Assembly (NCBI GenBank): GCA_035998945.1
Contig: DASYHD010000040.1
Coordinates: forward strand, 57,062 to 121,061
Reading direction: 5' to 3'
DNA from: Flavisolibacter sp.
Lineage (GTDB): Bacteria; Bacteroidota; Bacteroidia; Chitinophagales; Chitinophagaceae
DNA: 64,000 bases
Shown piece after piece: positions 44,359 to 55,822 of this stretch. The notes beneath the pieces were generated by a model. It was given only the letters and a program-made list of their open reading frames with translations, was not told the origin of the DNA and did no database searches. Positions within the stretch are counted from its first letter, which is position 1; each line of letters begins with the position of its first letter. The translations under genes were made by a program, and so were the position numbers.

Positions 44359-45660
44359 GTGATCATTTACAGCCATACGTTGTCGCCACGCTTACAATAC
44401 GTGGTTGATTTCCTTTCGCAATACTACAATACGCCCATCAAACTCCTGTGCGATGAGGAGAAGTATCTTGTTCATCCCGATCCGCACCGGATTAATTACA
44501 GCTATCATCGTTTGCAGGAAGGTGAAGTGTGGATTCACTCGCATGTGCTCCTGTTTGAGTCCACCATCCGGCCGGTGAAGATTGAGTGTTTTGAACACAA
44601 CAGGCACAAAGCATTTTTTAGAGCAGAAGGCGATACCGGCTTCGACCTCTTTGCCGGTATTTTCTTTTTGTTGACTCGCTACGAAGAATACCTGCCACAT
44701 CCAAAGGACATCTACGGCCGGTATGATCATCGGGCTTCGCTGGCTTTTAAAGAAAACTTTTTGCACTTGCCGCTGGTGAATCTTTGGCTGGAAAATTTCA
44801 GACAACTGCTGCAGGAGCGATTCCCGGACCTGAAACTTCCATTGCCCACGTTTCATTACAAAGCCACTTATGATATTGACATTGCATGGAGCTATAAGAA
44901 CAAGGGCTTTCAGCGAAATGCAGGAGCCATTGTCAAACTCTTTTTTACTGGCAAATGGCGGTCGATGCTGCACCGCTTCCGGGTAATCCGGGGCCGCCGG
45001 CAAGATCCCTTTGATGCGTATGAATGGATGGATGATTTGCACCGGCAGACGGGCCTGAAGCCTCTTTATTTTTTCCTGGTAGCGCAACAGCGCAGCAGGT
45101 ACGACAGAAACATTGATGTGCAGAATCCTGCCTTCCAGGACCTGGTTCGGGATGTCGCATCAAAATATGCGGTGGGCCTGCACCCCTCCTGGGCCAGTGG
45201 CGATCAGCAGCCCTTGCTGGCAAAAGAAAAAAGCTGGCTTGAAAACATCTCAGGACAACCGGTAACAGCATCGCGGCAGCATTTTTTGCGTTTCGATCTG
45301 CCCAATACGTACAGGCGTTTGATTGCTGCCGGTATCACCGATGAATATTCGATGGGTTATGGTACCATCAATGGTTTCAGGGCATCGGTTGCCACACCTT
45401 ATTACTGGTTTGATTTAAAAAATGAAAGCAAAACGGCGCTGCGTATTCATCCGTTTTGCTTTATGGATGCCAATGCATATTACGAGGAAAAAATCTCGCA
45501 TACTGACGCTTTTCAGGAGATGATGCAGTTTTATGAGGTCATTCGTTCTGTGAACGGAACAATGATCACCGTCTGGCACAACAGCTTTTTAGGCATCGAT
45601 CCGGCATTTGAGGGCTGGCGGGATGTTTACGAGCAGTTTAACCTTCGTATCAGCGAATAG
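44359..45660 (+). CDS. polysaccharide deacetylase-like protein (DUF7033 plus NodB-like)
   Basis: FFLLTRYEEY, TYDIDIAW, GLHPSW, RQHFLRF. Confidence 0.75.
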   Translation: MIIYSHTLSPRLQYVVDFLSQYYNTPIKLLCDEEKYLVHPDPHRINYSYHRLQEGEVWIHSHVLLFESTIRPVKIECFEHNRHKAFFRAEGDTGFDLFAGIFFLLTRYEEYLPHPKDIYGRYDHRASLAFKENFLHLPLVNLWLENFRQLLQERFPDLKLPLPTFHYKATYDIDIAWSYKNKGFQRNAGAIVKLFFTGKWRSMLHRFRVIRGRRQDPFDAYEWMDDLHRQTGLKPLYFFLVAQQRSRYDRNIDVQNPAFQDLVRDVASKYAVGLHPSWASGDQQPLLAKEKSWLENISGQPVTASRQHFLRFDLPNTYRRLIAAGITDEYSMGYGTINGFRASVATPYYWFDLKNESKTALRIHPFCFMDANAYYEEKISHTDAFQEMMQFYEVIRSVNGTMITVWHNSFLGIDPAFEGWRDVYEQFNLRISE

Positions 45661-46929: not shown

Positions 46930-48195
46930 TTAGTAGTCAATTTTTGTTTGCGAAGAATTGCCGCCACCGCCACCCAGGTTATCAACAAAGGCGGCCGTGC
47001 CAAGCGCAATCACAACAATAATCAGTCCTACCATAAACACCGTATACGCAATGCGCAGGTAGCGGTATTTGCGTGCCAGCACCACACCGAGATAATAAAT
47101 ATCCATCATCATGGTGTTATACAGGTATTCTTTGTCCCGGATCATCTGGTTCATACCCCACTGGTAATCTTCCAGCTGCATACGGTGAAAATTGCCAAAA
47201 AAGAGCAGGTTTGTTTTTTTATTGCGAATGTCTTCTTCCGTAAACCGTCCGCTGTTGATAGAAGGACGTGTGGCCAAAATGGCAAACGTTACGCAAACCA
47301 GACAGGTAAGCACCAGCATTACCGTTGGTATAATGTATTCTTCGTTGCCTGCTGCAATAATGCGCGGCAATCCGTACGACACTGCAACCGAGAGAATAAT
47401 TGAATTCACTGTGATCAGAATATGTGCTTTGCTGTCGGCCATGCCACTTAACTCAATATGGTTATTGGACGTGGTGCGAAACATGGTTTGTATGCCCCGC
47501 TCCGCATTTTTCTGATCCTGCGCACTGATGGCTTCTACTTCTGTGAGGTAGGGAAAAACTTTCTCCGGTTCCGCCGTTGCCGTTTCTTTTTTATCCGTTT
47601 TCTTTTTGGTAAACAGCGCCAGGTTATTTTGTTTTTTCGGTTCCAGGAATTCCTGGCCGTAATCCGTAAAATAGCGGTGGCTTGTCAAAAACTGAATGTT
47701 GCTTTTGCGCCATTCTTTTTTGTCGATCTTGTGCCCAAGCATGCTTTCTCTTTCCTGCTTCAGCAACTGGTTGCGGGCTTTGAAATCTTCTGTGGAAAGG
47801 TGAAAAAGGTCAGCATCGCACAGAATTTTTTCAATCAGGCTTACCGGCGACTGCGGCATTTTAGTGGCCTGTATACAGGAAGCAACGCGTTGAATGGTGG
47901 TATCATCTACCTGGTGACCTGTCAGGAACTGGGTAGCAATATGTACACTCACATCTTCATGTCCTTCGGCACGGCCGGCAGAATAACCGGTATCGTGAAA
48001 CCAGGCTGCCAGCATCAGCACCAACCGGTCTTCGTCGTGCAATTGATAGTGATTTGCCATATGGCTGCAGGCTTCCACCACATCCTCCGTATGTTCCAGA
48101 CTATGAAAAACAAATTCCGGATTTACTTTGTGTTGAAATACATCTGTAACGTAGGCCCGGGCTGCGCCCAACAAATGGCTGTTCGTTTCATTCAT
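46930..48195 (-). CDS. HD-domain phosphohydrolase fused to a Pycsar-type (DUF5706) membrane effector domain
   Basis: HD: FH31SLEH35, AAWFH67D68, GHE, CD127AD129L. C-terminal ADSKAHILITVNSII...NLLFFGNF...IYYLGVVLARKYRYLR with 3 hydrophobic segments. Confidence 0.85.
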   Translation of the reverse strand: MNETNSHLLGAARAYVTDVFQHKVNPEFVFHSLEHTEDVVEACSHMANHYQLHDEDRLVLMLAAWFHDTGYSAGRAEGHEDVSVHIATQFLTGHQVDDTTIQRVASCIQATKMPQSPVSLIEKILCDADLFHLSTEDFKARNQLLKQERESMLGHKIDKKEWRKSNIQFLTSHRYFTDYGQEFLEPKKQNNLALFTKKKTDKKETATAEPEKVFPYLTEVEAISAQDQKNAERGIQTMFRTTSNNHIELSGMADSKAHILITVNSIILSVAVSYGLPRIIAAGNEEYIIPTVMLVLTCLVCVTFAILATRPSINSGRFTEEDIRNKKTNLLFFGNFHRMQLEDYQWGMNQMIRDKEYLYNTMMMDIYYLGVVLARKYRYLRIAYTVFMVGLIIVVIALGTAAFVDNLGGGGGNSSQTKIDY

Positions 48196-48232
48196 GGTAC
48201 TTGGTGCATTGTTTGATAAGTAAAAGTAACAA

Positions 48233-49117
48233 ATGCGTAAAATGTTATTTCAAAAGAAATGCCTGCCTGCCTGGCTCTTGTTTTTCGTTTGTACGCTGCT
48301 GTTTGTTGCAGGATGTAAACAAAAAGGAACTTCACCTCCCGATTATGATTTGGGAAGCCCGCAAACCACCCTGCTGGGAAGCACCCTCAACGAAATTTCA
48401 GGCATCTGTTATTTTAGTGCGAAAGACAGCACCCTGCTGGGTATTGTCGATAGCAAAGAGAAAGTGTTTATGCTGAATATGCGTACAGCAAAACTAACAG
48501 ATTACACGGTCGATGTTGTACCGAAGAACAGCGATCTTGAAGATATCGTACGGGTAGATACTTCCCTTTTTCTTTTAATGAGCAAAGGCATCATACAGGA
48601 AGTGCCAGACGGTGCAAAAGACACCACTAATATCAAAATTTACAATCTCGGCCTGGAGGGTAAAAATGATTTTGAAACGATGTATTACGATTCGGCGGCA
48701 AAGTCGCTTGTAATCATGTGCAAAAATTGCGCCCATGAGAAAGGAGAGGGCTTTCGCACAGCCTATCGCTTTGACCTGGCCAGCCGCTCGTTCGATTCCT
48801 CGGAGTTTTATACCATTGATAAGGAAGAAGTGGGAAAGCTGGTAAATGACGCCAATGCTAAATTTGATCCGTCGGCTGCTGCCATTCATCCCATCAACAA
48901 ACGGCTGTACATTCTTTCTTCAGCCGGCAACCTGCTGGTAGTAGCCACAGTGCAGGGTGAGGTGTTGGAAGCCTACAACCTGAACCCGGATGTCTTTCCG
49001 CAGGCCGAGGGCATTGCTTTTGCACCAAATGGCGATATGTTCATTACAAATGAGAAAAAGCATGGCGAGCCCACGTTACTCCGTTTCCCCTATAAGCAAC
49101 AAAAAAGCAAAAAATAG
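48233..49117 (+). CDS. SdiA-regulated (YjiK-like) beta-propeller lipoprotein
   Basis: Lipobox VAGC, LNEISGI, LEDI, FDPSAAAIHP, QAEGIAFAPNGDMFITNE. Confidence 0.8.
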   Translation: MRKMLFQKKCLPAWLLFFVCTLLFVAGCKQKGTSPPDYDLGSPQTTLLGSTLNEISGICYFSAKDSTLLGIVDSKEKVFMLNMRTAKLTDYTVDVVPKNSDLEDIVRVDTSLFLLMSKGIIQEVPDGAKDTTNIKIYNLGLEGKNDFETMYYDSAAKSLVIMCKNCAHEKGEGFRTAYRFDLASRSFDSSEFYTIDKEEVGKLVNDANAKFDPSAAAIHPINKRLYILSSAGNLLVVATVQGEVLEAYNLNPDVFPQAEGIAFAPNGDMFITNEKKHGEPTLLRFPYKQQKSKK

Positions 49118-49121
49118 TGTG

Positions 49122-52100
49122 ATGAAAAGCCTCTTGTTTTGCGTGTTGACCCTGGTAACAACCACCTGCCTGGCACAGACCGACACTCTTACACAACGCA
49201 TTTTTTTAATAGGAGATGCCGGTGAAATATTTGCCGATGGCCGCCACCCCGTTATTGACTGGCTGCAGAAAAATGTTGACTGGAATGATGAGCGAAACAG
49301 TGCCATTTACCTGGGCGATAATATTTATCCCCTTGGCTTGCCCATGAGGGGAGAGCAGGATTATGAAGGCGCTAAACAGATTATTGATTACCTGGTAAAA
49401 CCGTACATTGGAAAAAAAGGAAAAGCTTATTTCGTTCCGGGTAATCACGATTGGGAGAATGGAAAGATTGGTGGTTGGCAACGCATTCGCAACCAGCACA
49501 ATTATATCAACGGGTTGGGTCAGAATAATATCCAGTCGCTGCCAACAGAAGGCTGCCCCGGACCCATTGCCATAGACTTCAACGATCAGGTAGCTGTTGT
49601 TTTTATCGACAGTCAATGGTTTTTATATCTTCACGAAAAGCCGGGACTGAGCTCAACTTGCAATAGCCGTACTGTAGAAGAGTTTGCCACTGAACTGCAG
49701 GAAATCGTGGCTCAGCACCAAAACCAATTACTGCTGATTGTTAACCACCATCCCATTTATTCGTTTGGACCACATGGTGGCGATTATACCTGGAAAGAAC
49801 ATCTTTTTCCCCTAACCGCATTAAACAAGAATCTTTGGATTCCGCTGCCTGTGCTAGGCTCTATTTATCCCATCGCCCGTGGCGTGTTTGGCAACCTGCA
49901 GGATATCAAACACCCTTTATATCAAACGATGGCCGAAGTGCTGGAATCAGCTATCCGTAAACATCCAAATGCTATCATTGCTTCGGGTCACGATCACAGC
50001 CTGCAATTCATCCGACGTGTGATTCAAAAGGATACCATATACCAGATTGTGAGCGGATCGGGTGCTAAAATCAGCCGGATAAAAGAAAACAAGGAAGGAG
50101 ACCTGCTTTTCCAGGACCTTATGTATGGCTTTTCAACGCTGGAAGTGTACAAAAGCGGACGAGCCGTAACTAAGTTTTATAACCTGAACAGTAAAGACCT
50201 TTCAGATACTACCTGGAGCCGGAACCTGGAATCCATTACAGCACCGCCTACTCTTATTTCAAAAGACAGCATACCAGTTCTGCCGGATTCAGTGACAGTT
50301 GCGGCTAATCCTACTCTGGCATCAAAAGGAATGCGTGATTTTTTCCTGGGAAGAAATTACCGTGCTGAATGGACAACCCCTGTTACCGCACCGGTACTGG
50401 ATATTGGAAAAGAATCAGGTGGTCTGAAACCGACCAAACAAGGTGGTGGCAAGCAAACCCGCTCGTTACGTGTGGCAGATGCCAGCGGAAAAGAATGGTC
50501 GCTCCGGTCTGTTGAAAAGTTTCCGGAAGCCGCTATCCCGCCAGACCTGCGGCAAACCTTTGTGCAGGACCTGGTGAACCAGGGCATCTCTGCATCCTAC
50601 CCTTTTGGCAGCCTTTCGGTAGAGCCGTTGGCAAGGGCTGCAGGGGTCCCCTATCATCGTAAAAAGCTGGTCTATATTCCTGATGACCCGCGGCTGGGAC
50701 GCTTTCGGCCAACCTTTAAGAATACGCTGGCTATTATGGAAGAGCGGGAGCCGCAAGGAATTACCAAAACCGACAACACAGATGAAGTGGTGTTGAAACT
50801 GGCAAAAGACAACGATGATCACATTGACCAGGTTGCTGTTTTGAAAGCCCGCCTGCTGGATAATTTTTACATGGATTTTGACCGTCATGAAGGGCAGTGG
50901 GATTGGGCAACACGGGACACCGGCAAAGGGAAAATTTATTTTCCCATTCCGAAAGACCAGGACCAGGTGTTCTTTGTGAATCAGGGTGTCATTCCGTACT
51001 TTGTAAAAAGGCCGTGGCTAGTGCCGGAAGTCCAGGGTTTTGAAAAGAGTGCCGACAACATCAACACGTTCAACCGGCCTGCCCGCAATTTCGATCGCTT
51101 CTTCCTGAATGAACTTGACAGGGAAACCTGGAGCAACCAGATCGATACCTTCCTGAGCCGCATGACGGATGCTGTTATAGAAGAAGCGCTGATGCGGCAG
51201 CCGAGAGAGGTGAGGGGTTTTCATTATGATGAGATTGCAAATACGCTAAAAGAGCGTCGTAAGCATTTCAAGTCCGATATGATGAAATACTACGATTTTC
51301 TGTCGGAAGAAGTGAATATTGTCGGCACCAACCAGCGGGAGCTTTTTGTGATTGATAAACTGGAAGGTGGCAAGGTGCATGTTAAGGTAAACAAGATCGA
51401 TACAAACGGTGCCATTGCCACCCGGGTATACGAAAGAACCTTTGATGAAAACGTCACCCGTCAATTAATGATCTATGGCCTGGAATCCAAGGACAGCTTT
51501 GTTGTAAGGGGTGGTGCCACCAGCATTAAAATGCGCATCATTGGCGGCCCCGGCGATGATCACTTCCGTAACGAAAGCAACGCAGGAAGACAGATAAGAG
51601 TGTATGATGTAAGCTTTGAAAACAACACGTTTGAGGGCAACCTGTCGGGCTTTATACAGCGGGTAAGCGGCAATCCCCGAAACAATGAATACAGTCGTAT
51701 TTTTTACCGCTATGGTTATGTTAAGCCAAGTTTGTTTGCAGCCTATAACATTGATGACGGTGTGTTCCTGGGCGGTCGTCTGGAGGTACTGACACATGGT
51801 TTCCGAAAAGAGCCTTTCAGCCAGCGGCATGTGATTACCGTTGGCCATGCGCTGCGGACTTCCTCGTATTTGTTTAACTATGCCGGAGATTTTACGAGAG
51901 CTGTTGGCATCAATGACCTGCTGATACGGGGCGACTTACGTGCACCCGTAAACGTAACGAACTTCTTTGGTATTGGTAACAATACTACGTACAACCGCGA
52001 TCGTGCCGGCAACCGGCTGCAGTACTACCGGGCACGGTACAACATCGGCAATTTATCAGTGATGCTCCGGCGCCACCTGCAGTCGTGGATGCGTATCAGT

Positions 52101-52778
52101 TATGGTCCTACATTCCAGTACTTTCATATTCACCGCGATGAGAATGCCGATAAATTTTTGGGGAAAGAACCCTTGCAGTTTGTAGATGAAAACACCTTGT
52201 ACAATCACAAGTCGTTTATTGGCGGGGAGTTCCGTCTTGACATCAACTCAAAGAACAGCGAAAATCTTCCCACCCGTGGTTTTAAAATGGATGCTGGCGC
52301 CAAACAATTATTTGGGCTGAATACATACAGTAACCGGCTGACACAATTGTTTTTTGACATGAGTGTATTTGCCTCTTTTACGCCGCGTTCAATTGCCGTA
52401 TATGCAGCACGATTAGGCTGGGCAAAAAACCTGGGTGCTTATGATATTCCGCAGGCGCAGTACCTCAGTGGTACCGAGAACCTGCGTGGATATCGTCGCA
52501 ACCGCTTTGCCGGCCGTGAGGTATTGTACAACAACCTTGAACTGCGTATCCGGGTAGCCGAATTCAGCACCTATCTTTTCCCGGGTTCATTGGGTTTGTT
52601 ATTCTTTAATGATGTGGGTCGGGTATGGGTCGATGAAGAGCAGTCGCGCCGCTGGCATCACGGGTATGGCGCCGGCATCTGGATTGCACCAATCAAACGA
52701 TGGGTGGTAACGGCGTCTGTGGCCCGTTCCAAAGAAGAAAGCCTTCTTCCATATGTAAGTGTTGGCTTCCGTTTTTAA
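49122..52778 (+). CDS. metallophosphoesterase-Omp85 (BamA/TamA-like barrel) outer membrane protein
   Basis: Signal peptide, five purple-acid-phosphatase motifs, Omp85 loop motif NLRGY (52482-52493), terminal VGFRF. Start moved to ATG 49122, 4 nt after the previous stop. Confidence 0.88.
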   Translation: MKSLLFCVLTLVTTTCLAQTDTLTQRIFLIGDAGEIFADGRHPVIDWLQKNVDWNDERNSAIYLGDNIYPLGLPMRGEQDYEGAKQIIDYLVKPYIGKKGKAYFVPGNHDWENGKIGGWQRIRNQHNYINGLGQNNIQSLPTEGCPGPIAIDFNDQVAVVFIDSQWFLYLHEKPGLSSTCNSRTVEEFATELQEIVAQHQNQLLLIVNHHPIYSFGPHGGDYTWKEHLFPLTALNKNLWIPLPVLGSIYPIARGVFGNLQDIKHPLYQTMAEVLESAIRKHPNAIIASGHDHSLQFIRRVIQKDTIYQIVSGSGAKISRIKENKEGDLLFQDLMYGFSTLEVYKSGRAVTKFYNLNSKDLSDTTWSRNLESITAPPTLISKDSIPVLPDSVTVAANPTLASKGMRDFFLGRNYRAEWTTPVTAPVLDIGKESGGLKPTKQGGGKQTRSLRVADASGKEWSLRSVEKFPEAAIPPDLRQTFVQDLVNQGISASYPFGSLSVEPLARAAGVPYHRKKLVYIPDDPRLGRFRPTFKNTLAIMEEREPQGITKTDNTDEVVLKLAKDNDDHIDQVAVLKARLLDNFYMDFDRHEGQWDWATRDTGKGKIYFPIPKDQDQVFFVNQGVIPYFVKRPWLVPEVQGFEKSADNINTFNRPARNFDRFFLNELDRETWSNQIDTFLSRMTDAVIEEALMRQPREVRGFHYDEIANTLKERRKHFKSDMMKYYDFLSEEVNIVGTNQRELFVIDKLEGGKVHVKVNKIDTNGAIATRVYERTFDENVTRQLMIYGLESKDSFVVRGGATSIKMRIIGGPGDDHFRNESNAGRQIRVYDVSFENNTFEGNLSGFIQRVSGNPRNNEYSRIFYRYGYVKPSLFAAYNIDDGVFLGGRLEVLTHGFRKEPFSQRHVITVGHALRTSSYLFNYAGDFTRAVGINDLLIRGDLRAPVNVTNFFGIGNNTTYNRDRAGNRLQYYRARYNIGNLSVMLRRHLQSWMRISYGPTFQYFHIHRDENADKFLGKEPLQFVDENTLYNHKSFIGGEFRLDINSKNSENLPTRGFKMDAGAKQLFGLNTYSNRLTQLFFDMSVFASFTPRSIAVYAARLGWAKNLGAYDIPQAQYLSGTENLRGYRRNRFAGREVLYNNLELRIRVAEFSTYLFPGSLGLLFFNDVGRVWVDEEQSRRWHHGYGAGIWIAPIKRWVVTASVARSKEESLLPYVSVGFRF

Positions 52779-52799
52779 AAGTTTATCAAAAGCTGTGAA

Positions 52800-52823
52800 G
52801 GAGGGAAAGCCTCTCCATTTTTT
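52800..52823 (+). terminator. probable terminator after the Omp85 gene
   Basis: ggagggaaagcctctcc, an imperfect hairpin followed by a T-run. Confidence 0.4.
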
Positions 52824-52933
52824 GTACTTAAACAAAATATAAAGTTGGTTTTCTGTAGCATTGGTTTCAGTTGCTGGCACAGTTTGGGCTATTAGCAAAG
52901 CGATAATGATTTCTTACCCGTAAAAACAAACCT

Positions 52934-53380
52934 ATGCGTCAGTTATCTACCTTCTCTGCCCTTGCTATTTCCATGTTGCTTGTTTTTAGCAGTTGTCAAA
53001 AATCAGATGTTATCAGGGATGAAAGAAGCCTGGATGGAACCTGGCTGGTTACTGGCATCCGTTCGGACAGGGCCTATGATTTTGACGGCGATGGCCGTAC
53101 CGAAACAGACATATATGGTGGCTATAATTCCTGCCAGCGGGATATTGTAATTGTTTTCAATGATGATGGTTATGGCCGCATGCGGCAAGGCTGTAATGCA
53201 TATTGGGAAAACATTACCTGGCGCCTTTCCAACAACAACCGGCAACTGGATATCCAATTACCCGGCGACCAGTTGAACCTTGCTATTTCGCAATTTGATA
53301 CGTATACCATTCGCGGTGTTGACCAGGTGTTCATCGACGGCAGCAGCTTTCAGATTACGTATACCCTGCAACGGCAGTAA
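52934..53380 (+). CDS. lipocalin-like lipoprotein (DUF5004-type)
   Basis: Lipobox FSSC, LDGTWLV (GxW), CQRD..VFNDDG. Confidence 0.7.
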   Translation: MRQLSTFSALAISMLLVFSSCQKSDVIRDERSLDGTWLVTGIRSDRAYDFDGDGRTETDIYGGYNSCQRDIVIVFNDDGYGRMRQGCNAYWENITWRLSNNNRQLDIQLPGDQLNLAISQFDTYTIRGVDQVFIDGSSFQITYTLQRQ

Positions 53381-53443
53381 CCCGTTACTCAAACGTTTTT
53401 AGCTGGTACGAATGAGACGTATAGCGGTTACTTGTATACGTTA

Positions 53444-55822
53444 TTAGCGCTTCGCCAACTGTTCTTTACCCAGTTTGGTATAGGCCTCCTTCTGGGGCAA
53501 TGTTTCCGTTTCAAACAATACATCTACCCGAACGGCTTTCAGGCCGCTGATGCCTTGTGTGTCTTCCAGGTCAAAGTGCTCAATGTTATCGCCAAGCAGT
53601 TTTTCTGCCTGCAGAAATTCAATGTACTCAAGGTATTCCATTAGCTCCTTGTGCTGCGAATATACAACGGCTATTTTGCCGGGTTGTGTCAGCCGCTCTT
53701 CCGAATCGCGGATGTGCACTTTGTCGATACGTTTTTTGATGATTTCATAACGGATGTTATAGGCGCCATCCACGTCAAACTTGCGTTCCTTTCTGCGGAA
53801 AGAAATTGTAAGCGGAATGGAATGCGCCAGGATAAGCTGCGTGGTTTGCAGGGTTAGCGGCAGGCGTTTTTCCAGGGCATGCGTAAGCCGGGCTGCTTTG
53901 GTTAAAAAGGAAAGCTGCCACAGCTTTAAATTACGCACATATATATCGCTGAAGGCGATGTGTGGCGTCAGCGACTGGCCAATATAAATATTGAATTCAA
54001 CACCATCGGTGATATAACGTTCAAAATAGTGCGGGTACACTTCCTGCACGGCCTTTTGTTCCTGGTCAATTAAGCGATCCAGTGCATCGTTGATGCGGGT
54101 GATGCTTTCCTCGTACTGCTTGCGGTGATGATAGATAATTTTCCGTGTAGGATCCAGTGCAGTGAAATAATCGTTGATCACCTTTTTCAGTTCCGGTTTC
54201 AGTTGTAACAGGTTTTGAAACACAGCATCCAGGTGTATCTGCAAAAAATCATAGATCTGCATTTCATCATCCGACAGCAGGGTGTCTGATGCCGCGTTGA
54301 TGTATTTGTCAATGCGGAATTGCGTTTCCTTCAGGATGGGGAAGTCAACTATTTTGCAGGCTTTCTTCAGCACTTCGCCGGCAATTGTTAATTGCTCCAA
54401 CAGGTCCAGTTGTATAGCATTGCTTCGCTCAACGGAAGAGTTGCGGACATCAATTGATCCATACAGCGGGTACACATCCTTGAACGAAATGGCCGGCATT
54501 TTGGCCATTTCAGATGTTTGCCGGTGCTGCAGGTAATGAAAGGCGGCTTCGGTAAACTTCCATTCTACTGCCGGCTGGATGGCCGTAAAATGTTCCTTGA
54601 TGGTTTTGTCGATCTGCATCTGCAGACTTTCATTGGTTTTCTTCAGCGCCAGCGTAAACAGTTCAATAGCCGGTATAATGCGGCTAACATGCTGGTACTG
54701 CAGTTTGCCAGCCTGATCGCTCATTATTTCCAGCAAGCCAATGAGGCTGCCGTCCTCGCATTTCAGCGGGCAAAGCAGCAGGCTACTGGCACCAAGATTC
54801 AGGTAAATCTTCAGCAATTCATTATGCCTTGTATTGTGCGTACTCAGCGTTTGATGCAGAATCGGTTGGGTTGTATGCTGGAACACCTCCTGGCATAGGT
54901 CACTGATCTCGTCCTTTCGGTGAATAACATCGTTGTTTTTGAACAGCAAACTGTTTCGGTAGTGCGTTTCTGTATAGAGGTAATAATTGTTCTTTTTGAA
55001 GAAAGGAGTAATACCGATTTTCACATTGCGCAAGCGGATAAGGCTTTGCACATGGTGTTCCAGTTCGTCGTACACTTCCACATTACTAAATGCATTGATG
55101 TTAAGCAGTGCATTTTTGATCTCGTTCGTGATCTGTGCCTGTGTTACATCGGCAACATCAATTACCACCAGTCCCTGGAACTGGAAGTTCTCCAGGGGCA
55201 ACAGTTCCCGCAGTTCATCAATCTCCAGGGTCCGGTAAGGGGAAAAACCGGCCGGCAATTCAAAATCTTTGTTGATGCACTGTACATCCACAAACTCAGC
55301 GTTCAGGTTCAGCTCAAAATATTTGGTAAGGTTGTTATCCTCATCCGGGAATGCGTGAACCGAAGTGGCAGTCAACGGCATTGATGCCGCGTATAGTTTG
55401 CGCAGGATCACATTATAAGCAAGCGATAAACTGGCTTTGGTGATATCCACCGTTGTACGCCGGTCAGGAACATTGATGGTGGTGCCACCCTTTAAAAAAT
55501 AGCGTTTAAAGCCTGGTGAAGCATATATGGTTTCGGAACTGAAAGGAAATGTAATGGCATACATGCCCTGGTTAGACGAAATGGAAGGAGGAAAAATTGT
55601 GGCCAGCAACGCTTCTACCAGGGCTTCGTGCCGGCGAAGCATCTCAGTGTCAATGCTGGGCTGTAGTAATTCGGGCTGCGCTTCTATTTCGGTTAACAGG
55701 TCCTGGTAAAGCTTTTTCGCACCGGGTTTATCTTCATTAACCATCCGCTTAATTACGGTTACCAGAGGCAGGATGGACAGAACAGAATTAAATCCGGTAT
55801 ATGTGTTTTCAACAGATGTCAT
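53444..55822 (-). CDS. large cytoplasmic GAF-domain-containing protein
   Basis: 792-aa ORF with no TM; GAF-like SLLLCPLK..GSLIGLLEI; conserved-looking C-half (AIQPAVEWKF, DVDGAYNIRYEIIKKRIDK, ERLTQPGKIAVVY). Confidence 0.8.
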   Translation of the reverse strand: MTSVENTYTGFNSVLSILPLVTVIKRMVNEDKPGAKKLYQDLLTEIEAQPELLQPSIDTEMLRRHEALVEALLATIFPPSISSNQGMYAITFPFSSETIYASPGFKRYFLKGGTTINVPDRRTTVDITKASLSLAYNVILRKLYAASMPLTATSVHAFPDEDNNLTKYFELNLNAEFVDVQCINKDFELPAGFSPYRTLEIDELRELLPLENFQFQGLVVIDVADVTQAQITNEIKNALLNINAFSNVEVYDELEHHVQSLIRLRNVKIGITPFFKKNNYYLYTETHYRNSLLFKNNDVIHRKDEISDLCQEVFQHTTQPILHQTLSTHNTRHNELLKIYLNLGASSLLLCPLKCEDGSLIGLLEIMSDQAGKLQYQHVSRIIPAIELFTLALKKTNESLQMQIDKTIKEHFTAIQPAVEWKFTEAAFHYLQHRQTSEMAKMPAISFKDVYPLYGSIDVRNSSVERSNAIQLDLLEQLTIAGEVLKKACKIVDFPILKETQFRIDKYINAASDTLLSDDEMQIYDFLQIHLDAVFQNLLQLKPELKKVINDYFTALDPTRKIIYHHRKQYEESITRINDALDRLIDQEQKAVQEVYPHYFERYITDGVEFNIYIGQSLTPHIAFSDIYVRNLKLWQLSFLTKAARLTHALEKRLPLTLQTTQLILAHSIPLTISFRRKERKFDVDGAYNIRYEIIKKRIDKVHIRDSEERLTQPGKIAVVYSQHKELMEYLEYIEFLQAEKLLGDNIEHFDLEDTQGISGLKAVRVDVLFETETLPQKEAYTKLGKEQLAKR

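Follow-up and report, generated by a model that had tools for sequence, protein, structure and literature searches.

The window analysed here, a stretch of 64,000 nucleotides from Flavisolibacter sp. (assembly GCA_035998945.1, contig DASYHD010000040.1), contains one representative of a gene module that is passed on vertically in Bacteroidota. The four genes of this module encode an HD phosphohydrolase fused to a three-helix PycTM membrane module (HD-PycTM), an SdiA-regulated-type beta-propeller lipoprotein, an outer-membrane protein that joins a phosphatase domain to an Omp85 barrel (the Omp85 protein), and a 792-aa protein with a GAF sensor region (Table 1). We are highly confident that the four constitute one functional module. 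The composite explanation that accounts best for the data, to which we assign a probability of roughly 0.55, is that this conserved module performs nucleotide signalling linked to phosphate and envelope physiology. It probably serves everyday phosphate-related signalling, not defence. The module is a new relative of the pairing between a cyclase and a protein with three transmembrane (TM) helices that characterises Pycsar and Pucsar, and full-text literature searches returned no paper on this module architecture.

Conservation of the gene cluster

HD-PycTM was searched for in one genome per genus of 81 Chitinophagaceae genera, and a full-length copy was present in 41 of them. About 20 kb around 40 of these copies was then queried with the full set of proteins from 42.9-59.7 kb of the window. 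In this HD-centred set the lipoprotein was present in 36/40 loci, the Omp85 protein in 33/40 and the 792-aa protein in 21/40, while the EamA, LutB, DUF7033 and DUF5004 genes were each found in 0/40. Gene order and strand vary between genera, with a co-directional arrangement of HD-PycTM, lipoprotein, Omp85 protein and 792-aa protein in L021, L022 and L032. The retention of the four genes through rearrangement, while their true neighbours are lost, indicates a functional cluster rather than simple synteny. The candidate explanation that the five genes of the locus are unrelated neighbours was dismissed by this analysis. The fifth gene, which encodes the DUF5004/lipocalin-like lipoprotein, had been counted as a member of the circuit in an earlier note on this DNA; its absence from the 40 loci does not bear this out, and it looks like a lineage-specific local insert.

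The 792-aa protein was found in 34 of the 81 Chitinophagaceae genera, all of which belong to the 41 with HD-PycTM. A profile of its family, run against named genomes, returned at least 553 loci, 80 of which were kept as a GAF-centred set. The same cluster is found there in Chitinophaga, Reichenbachiella, Algoriphagus and Flectobacillus, with differing outer neighbours, and it recurs in further families. Flavisolibacter-like genomes keep endonuclease III (Nth), enolase and an ABC gene on the other side of the GAF gene, a synteny which shows that the locus is old and chromosomal.

At the level of the phylum, a search of 251 near-complete Bacteroidota genomes found the PycTM part in 98 and the middle domain of the Omp85 protein in 101; both are present in 89 genomes and neither in 141. 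The 792-aa protein occurs in 38 genomes, always with PycTM (38/38) and nearly always with the Omp85 middle domain (37/38), and its gene lies at most 15 kb from HD-PycTM in 26 of the 38, often directly adjacent. The module as such is present in about 40% of the 251 genomes and its distribution follows families. When the distances between loci were compared from protein to protein, the matrices of all four correlated with one another (r 0.84-0.91, Mantel p 0.001, 36 loci), and this correlation fits their inheritance as a unit. The earlier note had named the clustering and co-occurrence of the four families beforehand as a point on which its proposal of a single circuit could be refuted; both were found far beyond this genome, and the idea was not refuted.

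The 792-aa protein and its cyclase-type fold

As a single sequence, the 792-aa protein has no match in Pfam (E up to 1), NCBIfam, PADLOC or the sequences of the PDB. A profile built from 19 family members matches solved GAF domains over residues ~320-405 (3p01, E 3e-5; 4bwi/Cph2, 3e-4), which confirms the GAF label given to the protein earlier, and the same profile found nothing in the PDB for the C-terminal half. Among its homologs, one carries a precomputed PF01590 and some a precomputed PF27174. The AlphaFold2 (AF2) model of the whole protein (pLDDT 85.7) consists of an N-terminal half with PAS-like and GAF domains, a long coiled-coil helix (residues 376-434) and a C-terminal half with a cyclase fold. 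Its best PDB match in Foldseek is 6fht, a phytochrome-linked adenylate/guanylate cyclase (E 5.7e-9), followed by DosP, phytochrome PAS-GAF modules and soluble guanylate cyclase (sGC).

Residues 436-775 were modelled separately with 41 homologs, giving a pLDDT of 91.2 and a pTM of 0.86. The top 16 PDB matches of this model in Foldseek are all class III cyclases (2w01, 1wc0-5, 3uvj, 3et6, 2bw7 and the cyclase part of 6fht, including Cya2, CyaC and sGC), with a probability of 1.00 for 13 of the 16 and 0.99 for 3, and a target-normalised TM score of 0.47-0.53 against single-domain targets. These models assign the C-terminal half to the class III cyclase type at the level of fold only. The earlier suggestion of a cyclase-like GAF protein is thereby borne out at fold level, with no sequence match.

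The conservation of the C-terminal half can be placed on this fold. The 19-sequence alignment contains the conserved motifs YPLYGAID-IRNSS, FRTDGVEYDIYIGQS, FDVEGAYNIRYxIIKKRIDK and ERLTQPGK. Residues D458 (YGSID-VRNSS), D606 (TDG hairpin), K696-K697-R698, D700-K701, R710 and R765 are invariant in both the 19- and the 41-sequence alignments; N689 is invariant in the latter and at least 90% conserved in the former. In the secondary structure of the models, D458 lies at the end of strand beta1 and D606 in the beta2-beta3 hairpin, the secondary-structure positions at which cyclases have their two metal-binding aspartates, and the invariant acidic and basic residues are predicted to stand where metal and phosphate binding would be expected. 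A helical bundle of 134 residues is inserted between strand beta1 and this hairpin. The succession of sensor, coiled-coil helix and cyclase fold is that of sensor-linked class III cyclases (GAF/PAS-regulated adenylyl cyclases, sGC, 6fht). The 792-aa protein differs from these enzymes in that it has no PF00211 match, carries the bundle after beta1 and has an altered Asn/Arg motif in helix alpha4 (GAYNIRYEIIKKRIDK); moreover, 148 residues separate its candidate metal aspartates, a spacing that is usually roughly 45 residues in class III cyclases.

The family is coherent, and its matches with E up to 0.001 fall into 1399 representative clusters. Most of the 150 listed are about 790 aa long, with a few shorter, and the members are named 'hypothetical protein' in their sources. 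Tandem or fragmented duplicates of the gene were seen at L112, L044, L049 and L070; the record of L112 is labelled 'Hyphomicrobiales' and is probably a mis-binned contig. One homolog lies inside an open frame of 1383 aa (G112:C1:3519687-3521996), which suggests a domain fusion.

The HD-PycTM protein

The assignment of the membrane part is clear, with a match to Pfam PycTM (PF18967) at residues 284-390 (1.9e-36) and to the PADLOC PycTM model over the C-terminal ~180 residues (3.6e-17, positions 14-149 of the 160 of the hidden Markov model, HMM). The HD domain is recognised by Pfam at 2.5e-6 (28.2 bits for a cutoff of 22), and at least 7790 homologs share the HD-PycTM architecture. Among 33 homologs, H31, H35, H67-D68, H79-E80, D127, D129 and H132 are invariant, and this invariance of the metal ligands suggests that the HD domain is probably active. 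The nearest solved relatives of this domain are uncharacterised hydrolases, namely 2pq7 (E 5e-7) and YedJ of E. coli (3gw7, E 9e-7), which are stand-alone proteins, unlike the HD domain of the module with its fused membrane part. Class I phosphodiesterases match it only above E 0.2, and a PDB search with the single HD-PycTM sequence gave nothing useful. A stand-alone HD paralog of ~200 aa is encoded in the same genome (C23:114132-114668). The hydrophobic helices of the PycTM part span residues ~256-278, 288-310 and 378-402. The loop of ~65 residues between TM2 and TM3 is conserved, with an invariant N329-LLFFG-N335, and would be cytoplasmic according to the positive-inside rule.

The lipoprotein and the phosphatase-Omp85 protein

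The lipoprotein matches PF06977 (SdiA-regulated) over 235 of the 249 profile positions (2.4e-9, 37.2 bits, cutoff 21), and its signal peptide ends in the lipobox FVAG-C. A protein of 561 aa at L002:4465-6150 (+) consists of two tandem SdiA-type propeller units.

The Omp85 protein begins with a Metallophos domain (Pfam, 1.9e-5, 25.7 bits against a cutoff of 21.5), in which the motifs GDAG, GDNxY (GDNIY), GNHD, HHP (VNHH) and GHxH (GHDH) are each at least 90% conserved among 62 long homologs. This five-motif pattern, including the Tyr-containing GDxxY block, is shared with purple acid phosphatases (PAP) and calcineurin-like metallophosphoesterases. The domain is set apart from purple acid phosphatases by its position N-terminal to a middle domain of ~520 residues and an Omp85 barrel, and it has no close solved relative; a PDB search with the single sequence of the Omp85 protein gave nothing useful, with human PAP appearing only at E 0.8. 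The C-terminal barrel matches Omp85 in Pfam (2.8e-9, 37.4 bits, cutoff 24) and Omp85_fam in NCBIfam (3.9e-21 on the barrel, under the full-length cutoff of that model), and Pfam detects no POTRA domain.

The middle domain (residues 380-900) has no Pfam match. It is conserved, with a GGGKQT loop and the motifs DFDRHxDQW...RDRDQAF. The sole match of a 32-sequence profile of this domain is the catalytic loop of H. pylori CtkA (3akj), at a marginal E of 0.03 and over ~57 residues, where MDFDRHxDQWRW aligns with DMFVaD...FDRHNGNWGF of CtkA. A HipA/CtkA-like kinase fold is possible, as a lead and not a finding; the domain differs from these kinases by a Gln in place of the catalytic-loop Asn, and its location would be extracytoplasmic, a setting in which no ATP is expected. 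The designation of the protein as a kinase in the earlier note is consequently weak, with this one marginal profile match behind it. Three paralogs of the Omp85 protein are encoded in the same genome (C18:204036-206645, C31:17918-20566 and C33:265170-266732); they are shorter, have no phosphatase domain, and comprise either the middle domain and the barrel or the middle domain alone. In many related clusters, a paralog of ~860 aa adjoins the long form.

Core and lineage-specific members of the module

Several additional genes recur in related loci. A neighbour of ~680 aa is PPK1, with all four Pfam PPK domains; its gene directly follows HD-PycTM in 21/40 HD-centred loci and is present in 12/80 GAF-centred loci. 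At L032:10735-13527 (+), a single frame of 930 aa runs from PPK1 into the SdiA-type lipoprotein without an intervening stop codon, with the Met and the lipobox of the lipoprotein internal to it; it could stem from gene fusion, from read-through or from faulty assembly. Clustering of the neighbours also identified a PAP2-family membrane phosphatase as a recurrent extra member. Another recurrent addition is a class III cyclase with six TM helices (Pfam Guanylate_cyc 9e-15, PADLOC PycC 2e-16), found in 7/40 HD-centred loci.

The zero overlap between the 21 loci with the 792-aa protein and the 7 with this cyclase, among the 40, suggested that the two displace one another. This was ruled out by L054, L055, L059, L063, L072 and L081, which hold both, and by the present genome, where both occur unlinked. 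The cyclase of this genome (C37:187247-188275, minus strand) matches Guanylate_cyc at 2.6e-10 and PADLOC PycC at 1.1e-11, and is 31-42% identical to the module-embedded cyclases of other genera. The earlier remark that PycTM is normally paired with PycC and that none is present here must be qualified in this light: none of the five genes of the locus matches a cyclase HMM, as it implied, but a protein positive for the PycC HMM is encoded elsewhere in the genome, and classical class III cyclases are present in related clusters.

The composition of the core was clarified by a family outside the window's class. At L123:3719-10149 (+), a minimal co-directional operon with gaps of 24 and 68 bp encodes, in this order, a phosphatase-Omp85 protein (1262 aa), a class III cyclase-TPR protein (660 aa, Guanylate_cyc) and a stand-alone PycTM (188 aa); the barrel of this Omp85 homolog also matches ShlB/FhaC. 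As this operon is reduced to three genes, the phylum-wide core of the module consists of an inner-membrane protein of the PycTM type with three helices, an Omp85 barrel with phosphatase and middle domains, and a nucleotide-cyclase-type protein. The HD fusion, the propeller lipoprotein, PPK1, PAP2 and the six-TM class III cyclase are lineage-specific additions. The cyclase slot is occupied by a classical class III cyclase-TPR in one lineage and by the 792-aa protein in the lineage of the window.

Relation to Pycsar and Pucsar

Pycsar and Pucsar systems combine a class III cyclase (PycC or PucC) with a three-TM effector of the pJV1-SpdB3 family (PycTM or PucTM) (bioRxiv 10.64898/2026.08.12.744502). 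The module described here resembles them in the genetic pairing of a cyclase-type protein with a three-helix membrane protein of the PycTM family. Its PycTM part matches the effector models almost end to end, and the classical cyclases associated with the cluster match the PycC HMMs. The differences are nonetheless substantial. The PycTM of the module is fused to an HD hydrolase with intact motifs. No adjacent PycC-type cyclase can be recognised by sequence among the five genes of the locus (Guanylate_cyc, PADLOC PycC), and the local cyclase candidate is the 792-aa PAS/GAF protein, whose fold is undetected by HMMs. The phosphatase-Omp85 protein and the propeller lipoprotein are constant partners, and PPK1 and PAP2 frequent ones. 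Finally, the module keeps its synteny and is passed on vertically, and about 40% of the sampled Bacteroidota have it, in contrast with defence islands, which are mobile and patchy.

Proposed mechanism and its strength

We propose that the 792-aa protein, or a classical cyclase in other lineages, would sense a cytoplasmic ligand and make a cyclic or linear nucleotide signal. This signal would act on HD-PycTM at the inner membrane, probably at the conserved cytoplasmic loop between TM2 and TM3, and the HD domain could hydrolyse it or a different phosphoester. In the periplasm or on the cell surface, phosphorylated compounds may be the substrates of the lipoprotein and the phosphatase-Omp85 protein. 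We consider the passage of a nucleotide signal from the 792-aa protein to HD-PycTM, as a step in itself, to fall a little short of an even chance. The recurrence of PPK1 and PAP2 points to phosphate or polyphosphate and envelope physiology, not to abortive infection; the position of PPK1 next to HD-PycTM and the repeated presence of PAP2 also lend support to the phosphate/polyphosphate alternative that the earlier note had mentioned. As background, in Flavobacterium johnsoniae the canonical ppk adjoins ppx (Fjoh_4535/4534), and a second PPK-like gene, Fjoh_3851, is induced ~2^7.8-fold by phosphate depletion (PMC8115612). It may further be speculated, as a tentative and rather unlikely extension, that the module is a housekeeping trans-envelope second-messenger system, in which a hidden cyclase class would act on a PycTM gate and on a phosphatase/kinase-like Omp85 barrel with its lipoprotein, and would couple cytoplasmic phosphate or polyphosphate status to cell-surface chemistry; Pycsar and Pucsar systems of the TM type would then be its mobile offshoots.

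A number of observations weigh against nucleotide signalling by the module. Even for Pycsar, the searched texts describe PycTM only through its association with the cyclases. None of the solved relatives of the HD domain has a known substrate that would point to cyclic nucleotides. For the 792-aa protein, the Foldseek E-values of the C-terminal domain are modest (about 1e-3, with a TM score of about 0.5), a comparison of the C-terminal half with aligned class III cyclases in hhalign reaches a probability below 1% with or without the insert, and none of the sequence methods (Pfam, NCBIfam, PADLOC, hhalign) ties this half to cyclases; the placement of the candidate metal aspartates comes from their secondary-structure position. 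The protein is also present in only about 40% of the PycTM-positive genomes. The association between PycTM and the Omp85 middle domain (Fisher's exact test, 2e-43) ignores phylogeny. In the genome of the window, PPK1 (C28), PAP2 (C1) and the classical cyclase (C37) are unlinked to the module, and the module genes of the window form three transcription units.

Alternative explanations must be weighed against these signalling functions. The module could handle phosphate or polyphosphate without any second messenger, with PAP, PAP2, HD and PPK1 managing phosphate release and storage, PycTM serving as an anchor or scaffold, and the 792-aa protein acting as a regulator or a non-cyclising palm enzyme. 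The adjacent PPK1 in 21/40 loci, the recurring PAP2 phosphatases, the intact active-site motifs of PAP and HD, and the lack of a sequence-level cyclase signal in the 792-aa protein are all consistent with such a role. We nevertheless regard it as unlikely, given that several lineages have classical class III cyclases within the cluster, that such a cyclase is the only cytoplasmic partner in the L123 operon, and that the C-terminal domain of the 792-aa protein matches class III cyclases specifically among the folds of the PDB. An outer-membrane secretion or display device is a quite improbable alternative, in which the Omp85/TpsB-like barrel would export its own phosphatase domain, in a type Vd-like manner, or the lipoprotein, and the cytoplasmic genes would regulate expression. 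In PlpD-type autotransporters an N-terminal enzyme precedes an Omp85 barrel, a layout which the Omp85 protein resembles; the match of the L123 barrel to ShlB/FhaC and the lipoprotein gene 4 bp upstream of the Omp85 gene point the same way. Such a device would leave unexplained why PycTM and a cyclase almost always accompany it, and would have to do without a POTRA domain detectable by Pfam.

A Pycsar-like anti-phage system, where infection would trigger the cyclase activity of the 792-aa protein and PycTM would kill the cell, appears very unlikely. The PycTM module does match the Pfam and PADLOC models of the Pycsar effector, and the cyclases associated with the cluster match the PycC models of PADLOC (2e-16). 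Against this, the module keeps a syntenic chromosomal position across genera, beside enolase and endonuclease III, and its presence in about 40% of the Bacteroidota genomes follows families; its four proteins co-diverge, with no mobile or defence neighbours and no compositional anomaly, and its constant outer-membrane phosphatase barrel and lipoprotein have no counterpart in Pycsar. That the genes are independent and held together merely by conserved synteny is barely credible and largely refuted. The three transcription units of this genome would agree with it, as would the Nth, enolase and ABC genes that close relatives also keep beside the GAF gene. Yet the four genes stay together through many rearrangements and across several orders, in different outer contexts, while the true neighbours EamA, LutB and DUF5004 are lost, and the phyletic profiles coincide.

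Nucleotide signalling linked to phosphate and envelope physiology would have consequences beyond this locus. The only known role of PycTM-type proteins is that of suicide effectors in phage defence; with a slowly evolving, vertically inherited relative, the family would gain a physiological role and a tractable, non-lethal model. The 792-aa family would add a class of cyclase fold that current HMMs miss, so that inventories of second messengers in Bacteroidota from soil and water probably have gaps. The link of PPK1 and several phosphatases to the module suggests that the phosphorus cycling of abundant soil bacteria has a new layer of regulation.

Organisation of the locus in the window

The five open reading frames and their domains (Table 1) lie where the earlier note had placed them, as confirmed by the listing of open reading frames, translation and Pfam. 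Its spacings hold as well, with 37 bp between the divergent HD-PycTM and lipoprotein genes and 4 bp (49118-49121) between the lipoprotein and Omp85 genes; the latter two are presumably co-transcribed, being only 4 bp apart.

Table 1. Coordinates of the genes and domains of the locus, in positions of the window.
Feature	Position	Strand	Description and basis
HD-PycTM gene	46930-48195	-	421 aa; HD phosphohydrolase (cytoplasmic) fused to three-helix PycTM (pJV1-SpdB3-type) membrane module
HD domain, residues 1-200 of HD-PycTM	47596-48195	-	Pfam HD and invariant metal ligands
PycTM module, residues 234-421 of HD-PycTM	46930-47496	-	Pfam, PADLOC, hydrophobic helices
Divergent spacer between HD-PycTM and lipoprotein genes	48196-48232		37 bp
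SdiA-regulated-type beta-propeller lipoprotein gene	48233-49117	+	294 aa; PF06977, lipobox
Three-part outer-membrane Omp85 protein gene	49122-52778	+	1218 aa; signal peptide, metallophosphoesterase, middle domain, Omp85 barrel
Purple-acid-phosphatase-type metallophosphoesterase domain, residues ~22-330	49185-50111	+	Pfam Metallophos and conserved motifs
Middle domain of Omp85 protein, residues 380-900	50259-51821	+	Conserved motifs; without Pfam family
Omp85-type beta-barrel, residues ~920-1218	51879-52778	+	Pfam Omp85, NCBIfam Omp85_fam
DUF5004/lipocalin-like lipoprotein gene	52934-53380	+	148 aa; DUF5004 8e-8, Lipocalin_4 1e-3
792-aa GAF protein gene	53444-55822	-	Predicted cytoplasmic sensor-enzyme; convergent with the + strand genes
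PAS-like and GAF sensor region, residues 1-375 of 792-aa protein	54698-55822	-	Profile against PDB GAF domains; Foldseek
Class III cyclase-like palm domain (predicted), residues 436-775 of 792-aa protein	53498-54517	-	AF2 model and Foldseek
134-residue helical insert, residues 462-595 of 792-aa protein	54038-54439	-	Secondary structure of models

A Pfam scan of the flanks found no mobile or defence genes among the neighbours. These are of a housekeeping type (LutB, DUF7033, EamA, endonuclease III, enolase and an ABC ATPase), and the GC content is even across the region. The housekeeping, non-defence context described earlier is thus borne out by a chromosomal, syntenic and vertically inherited setting. 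Directly downstream of the LutB-like gene, at 44359-45660 (+), the window encodes a 433-aa protein whose sole domain is DUF7033 (2.5e-32).

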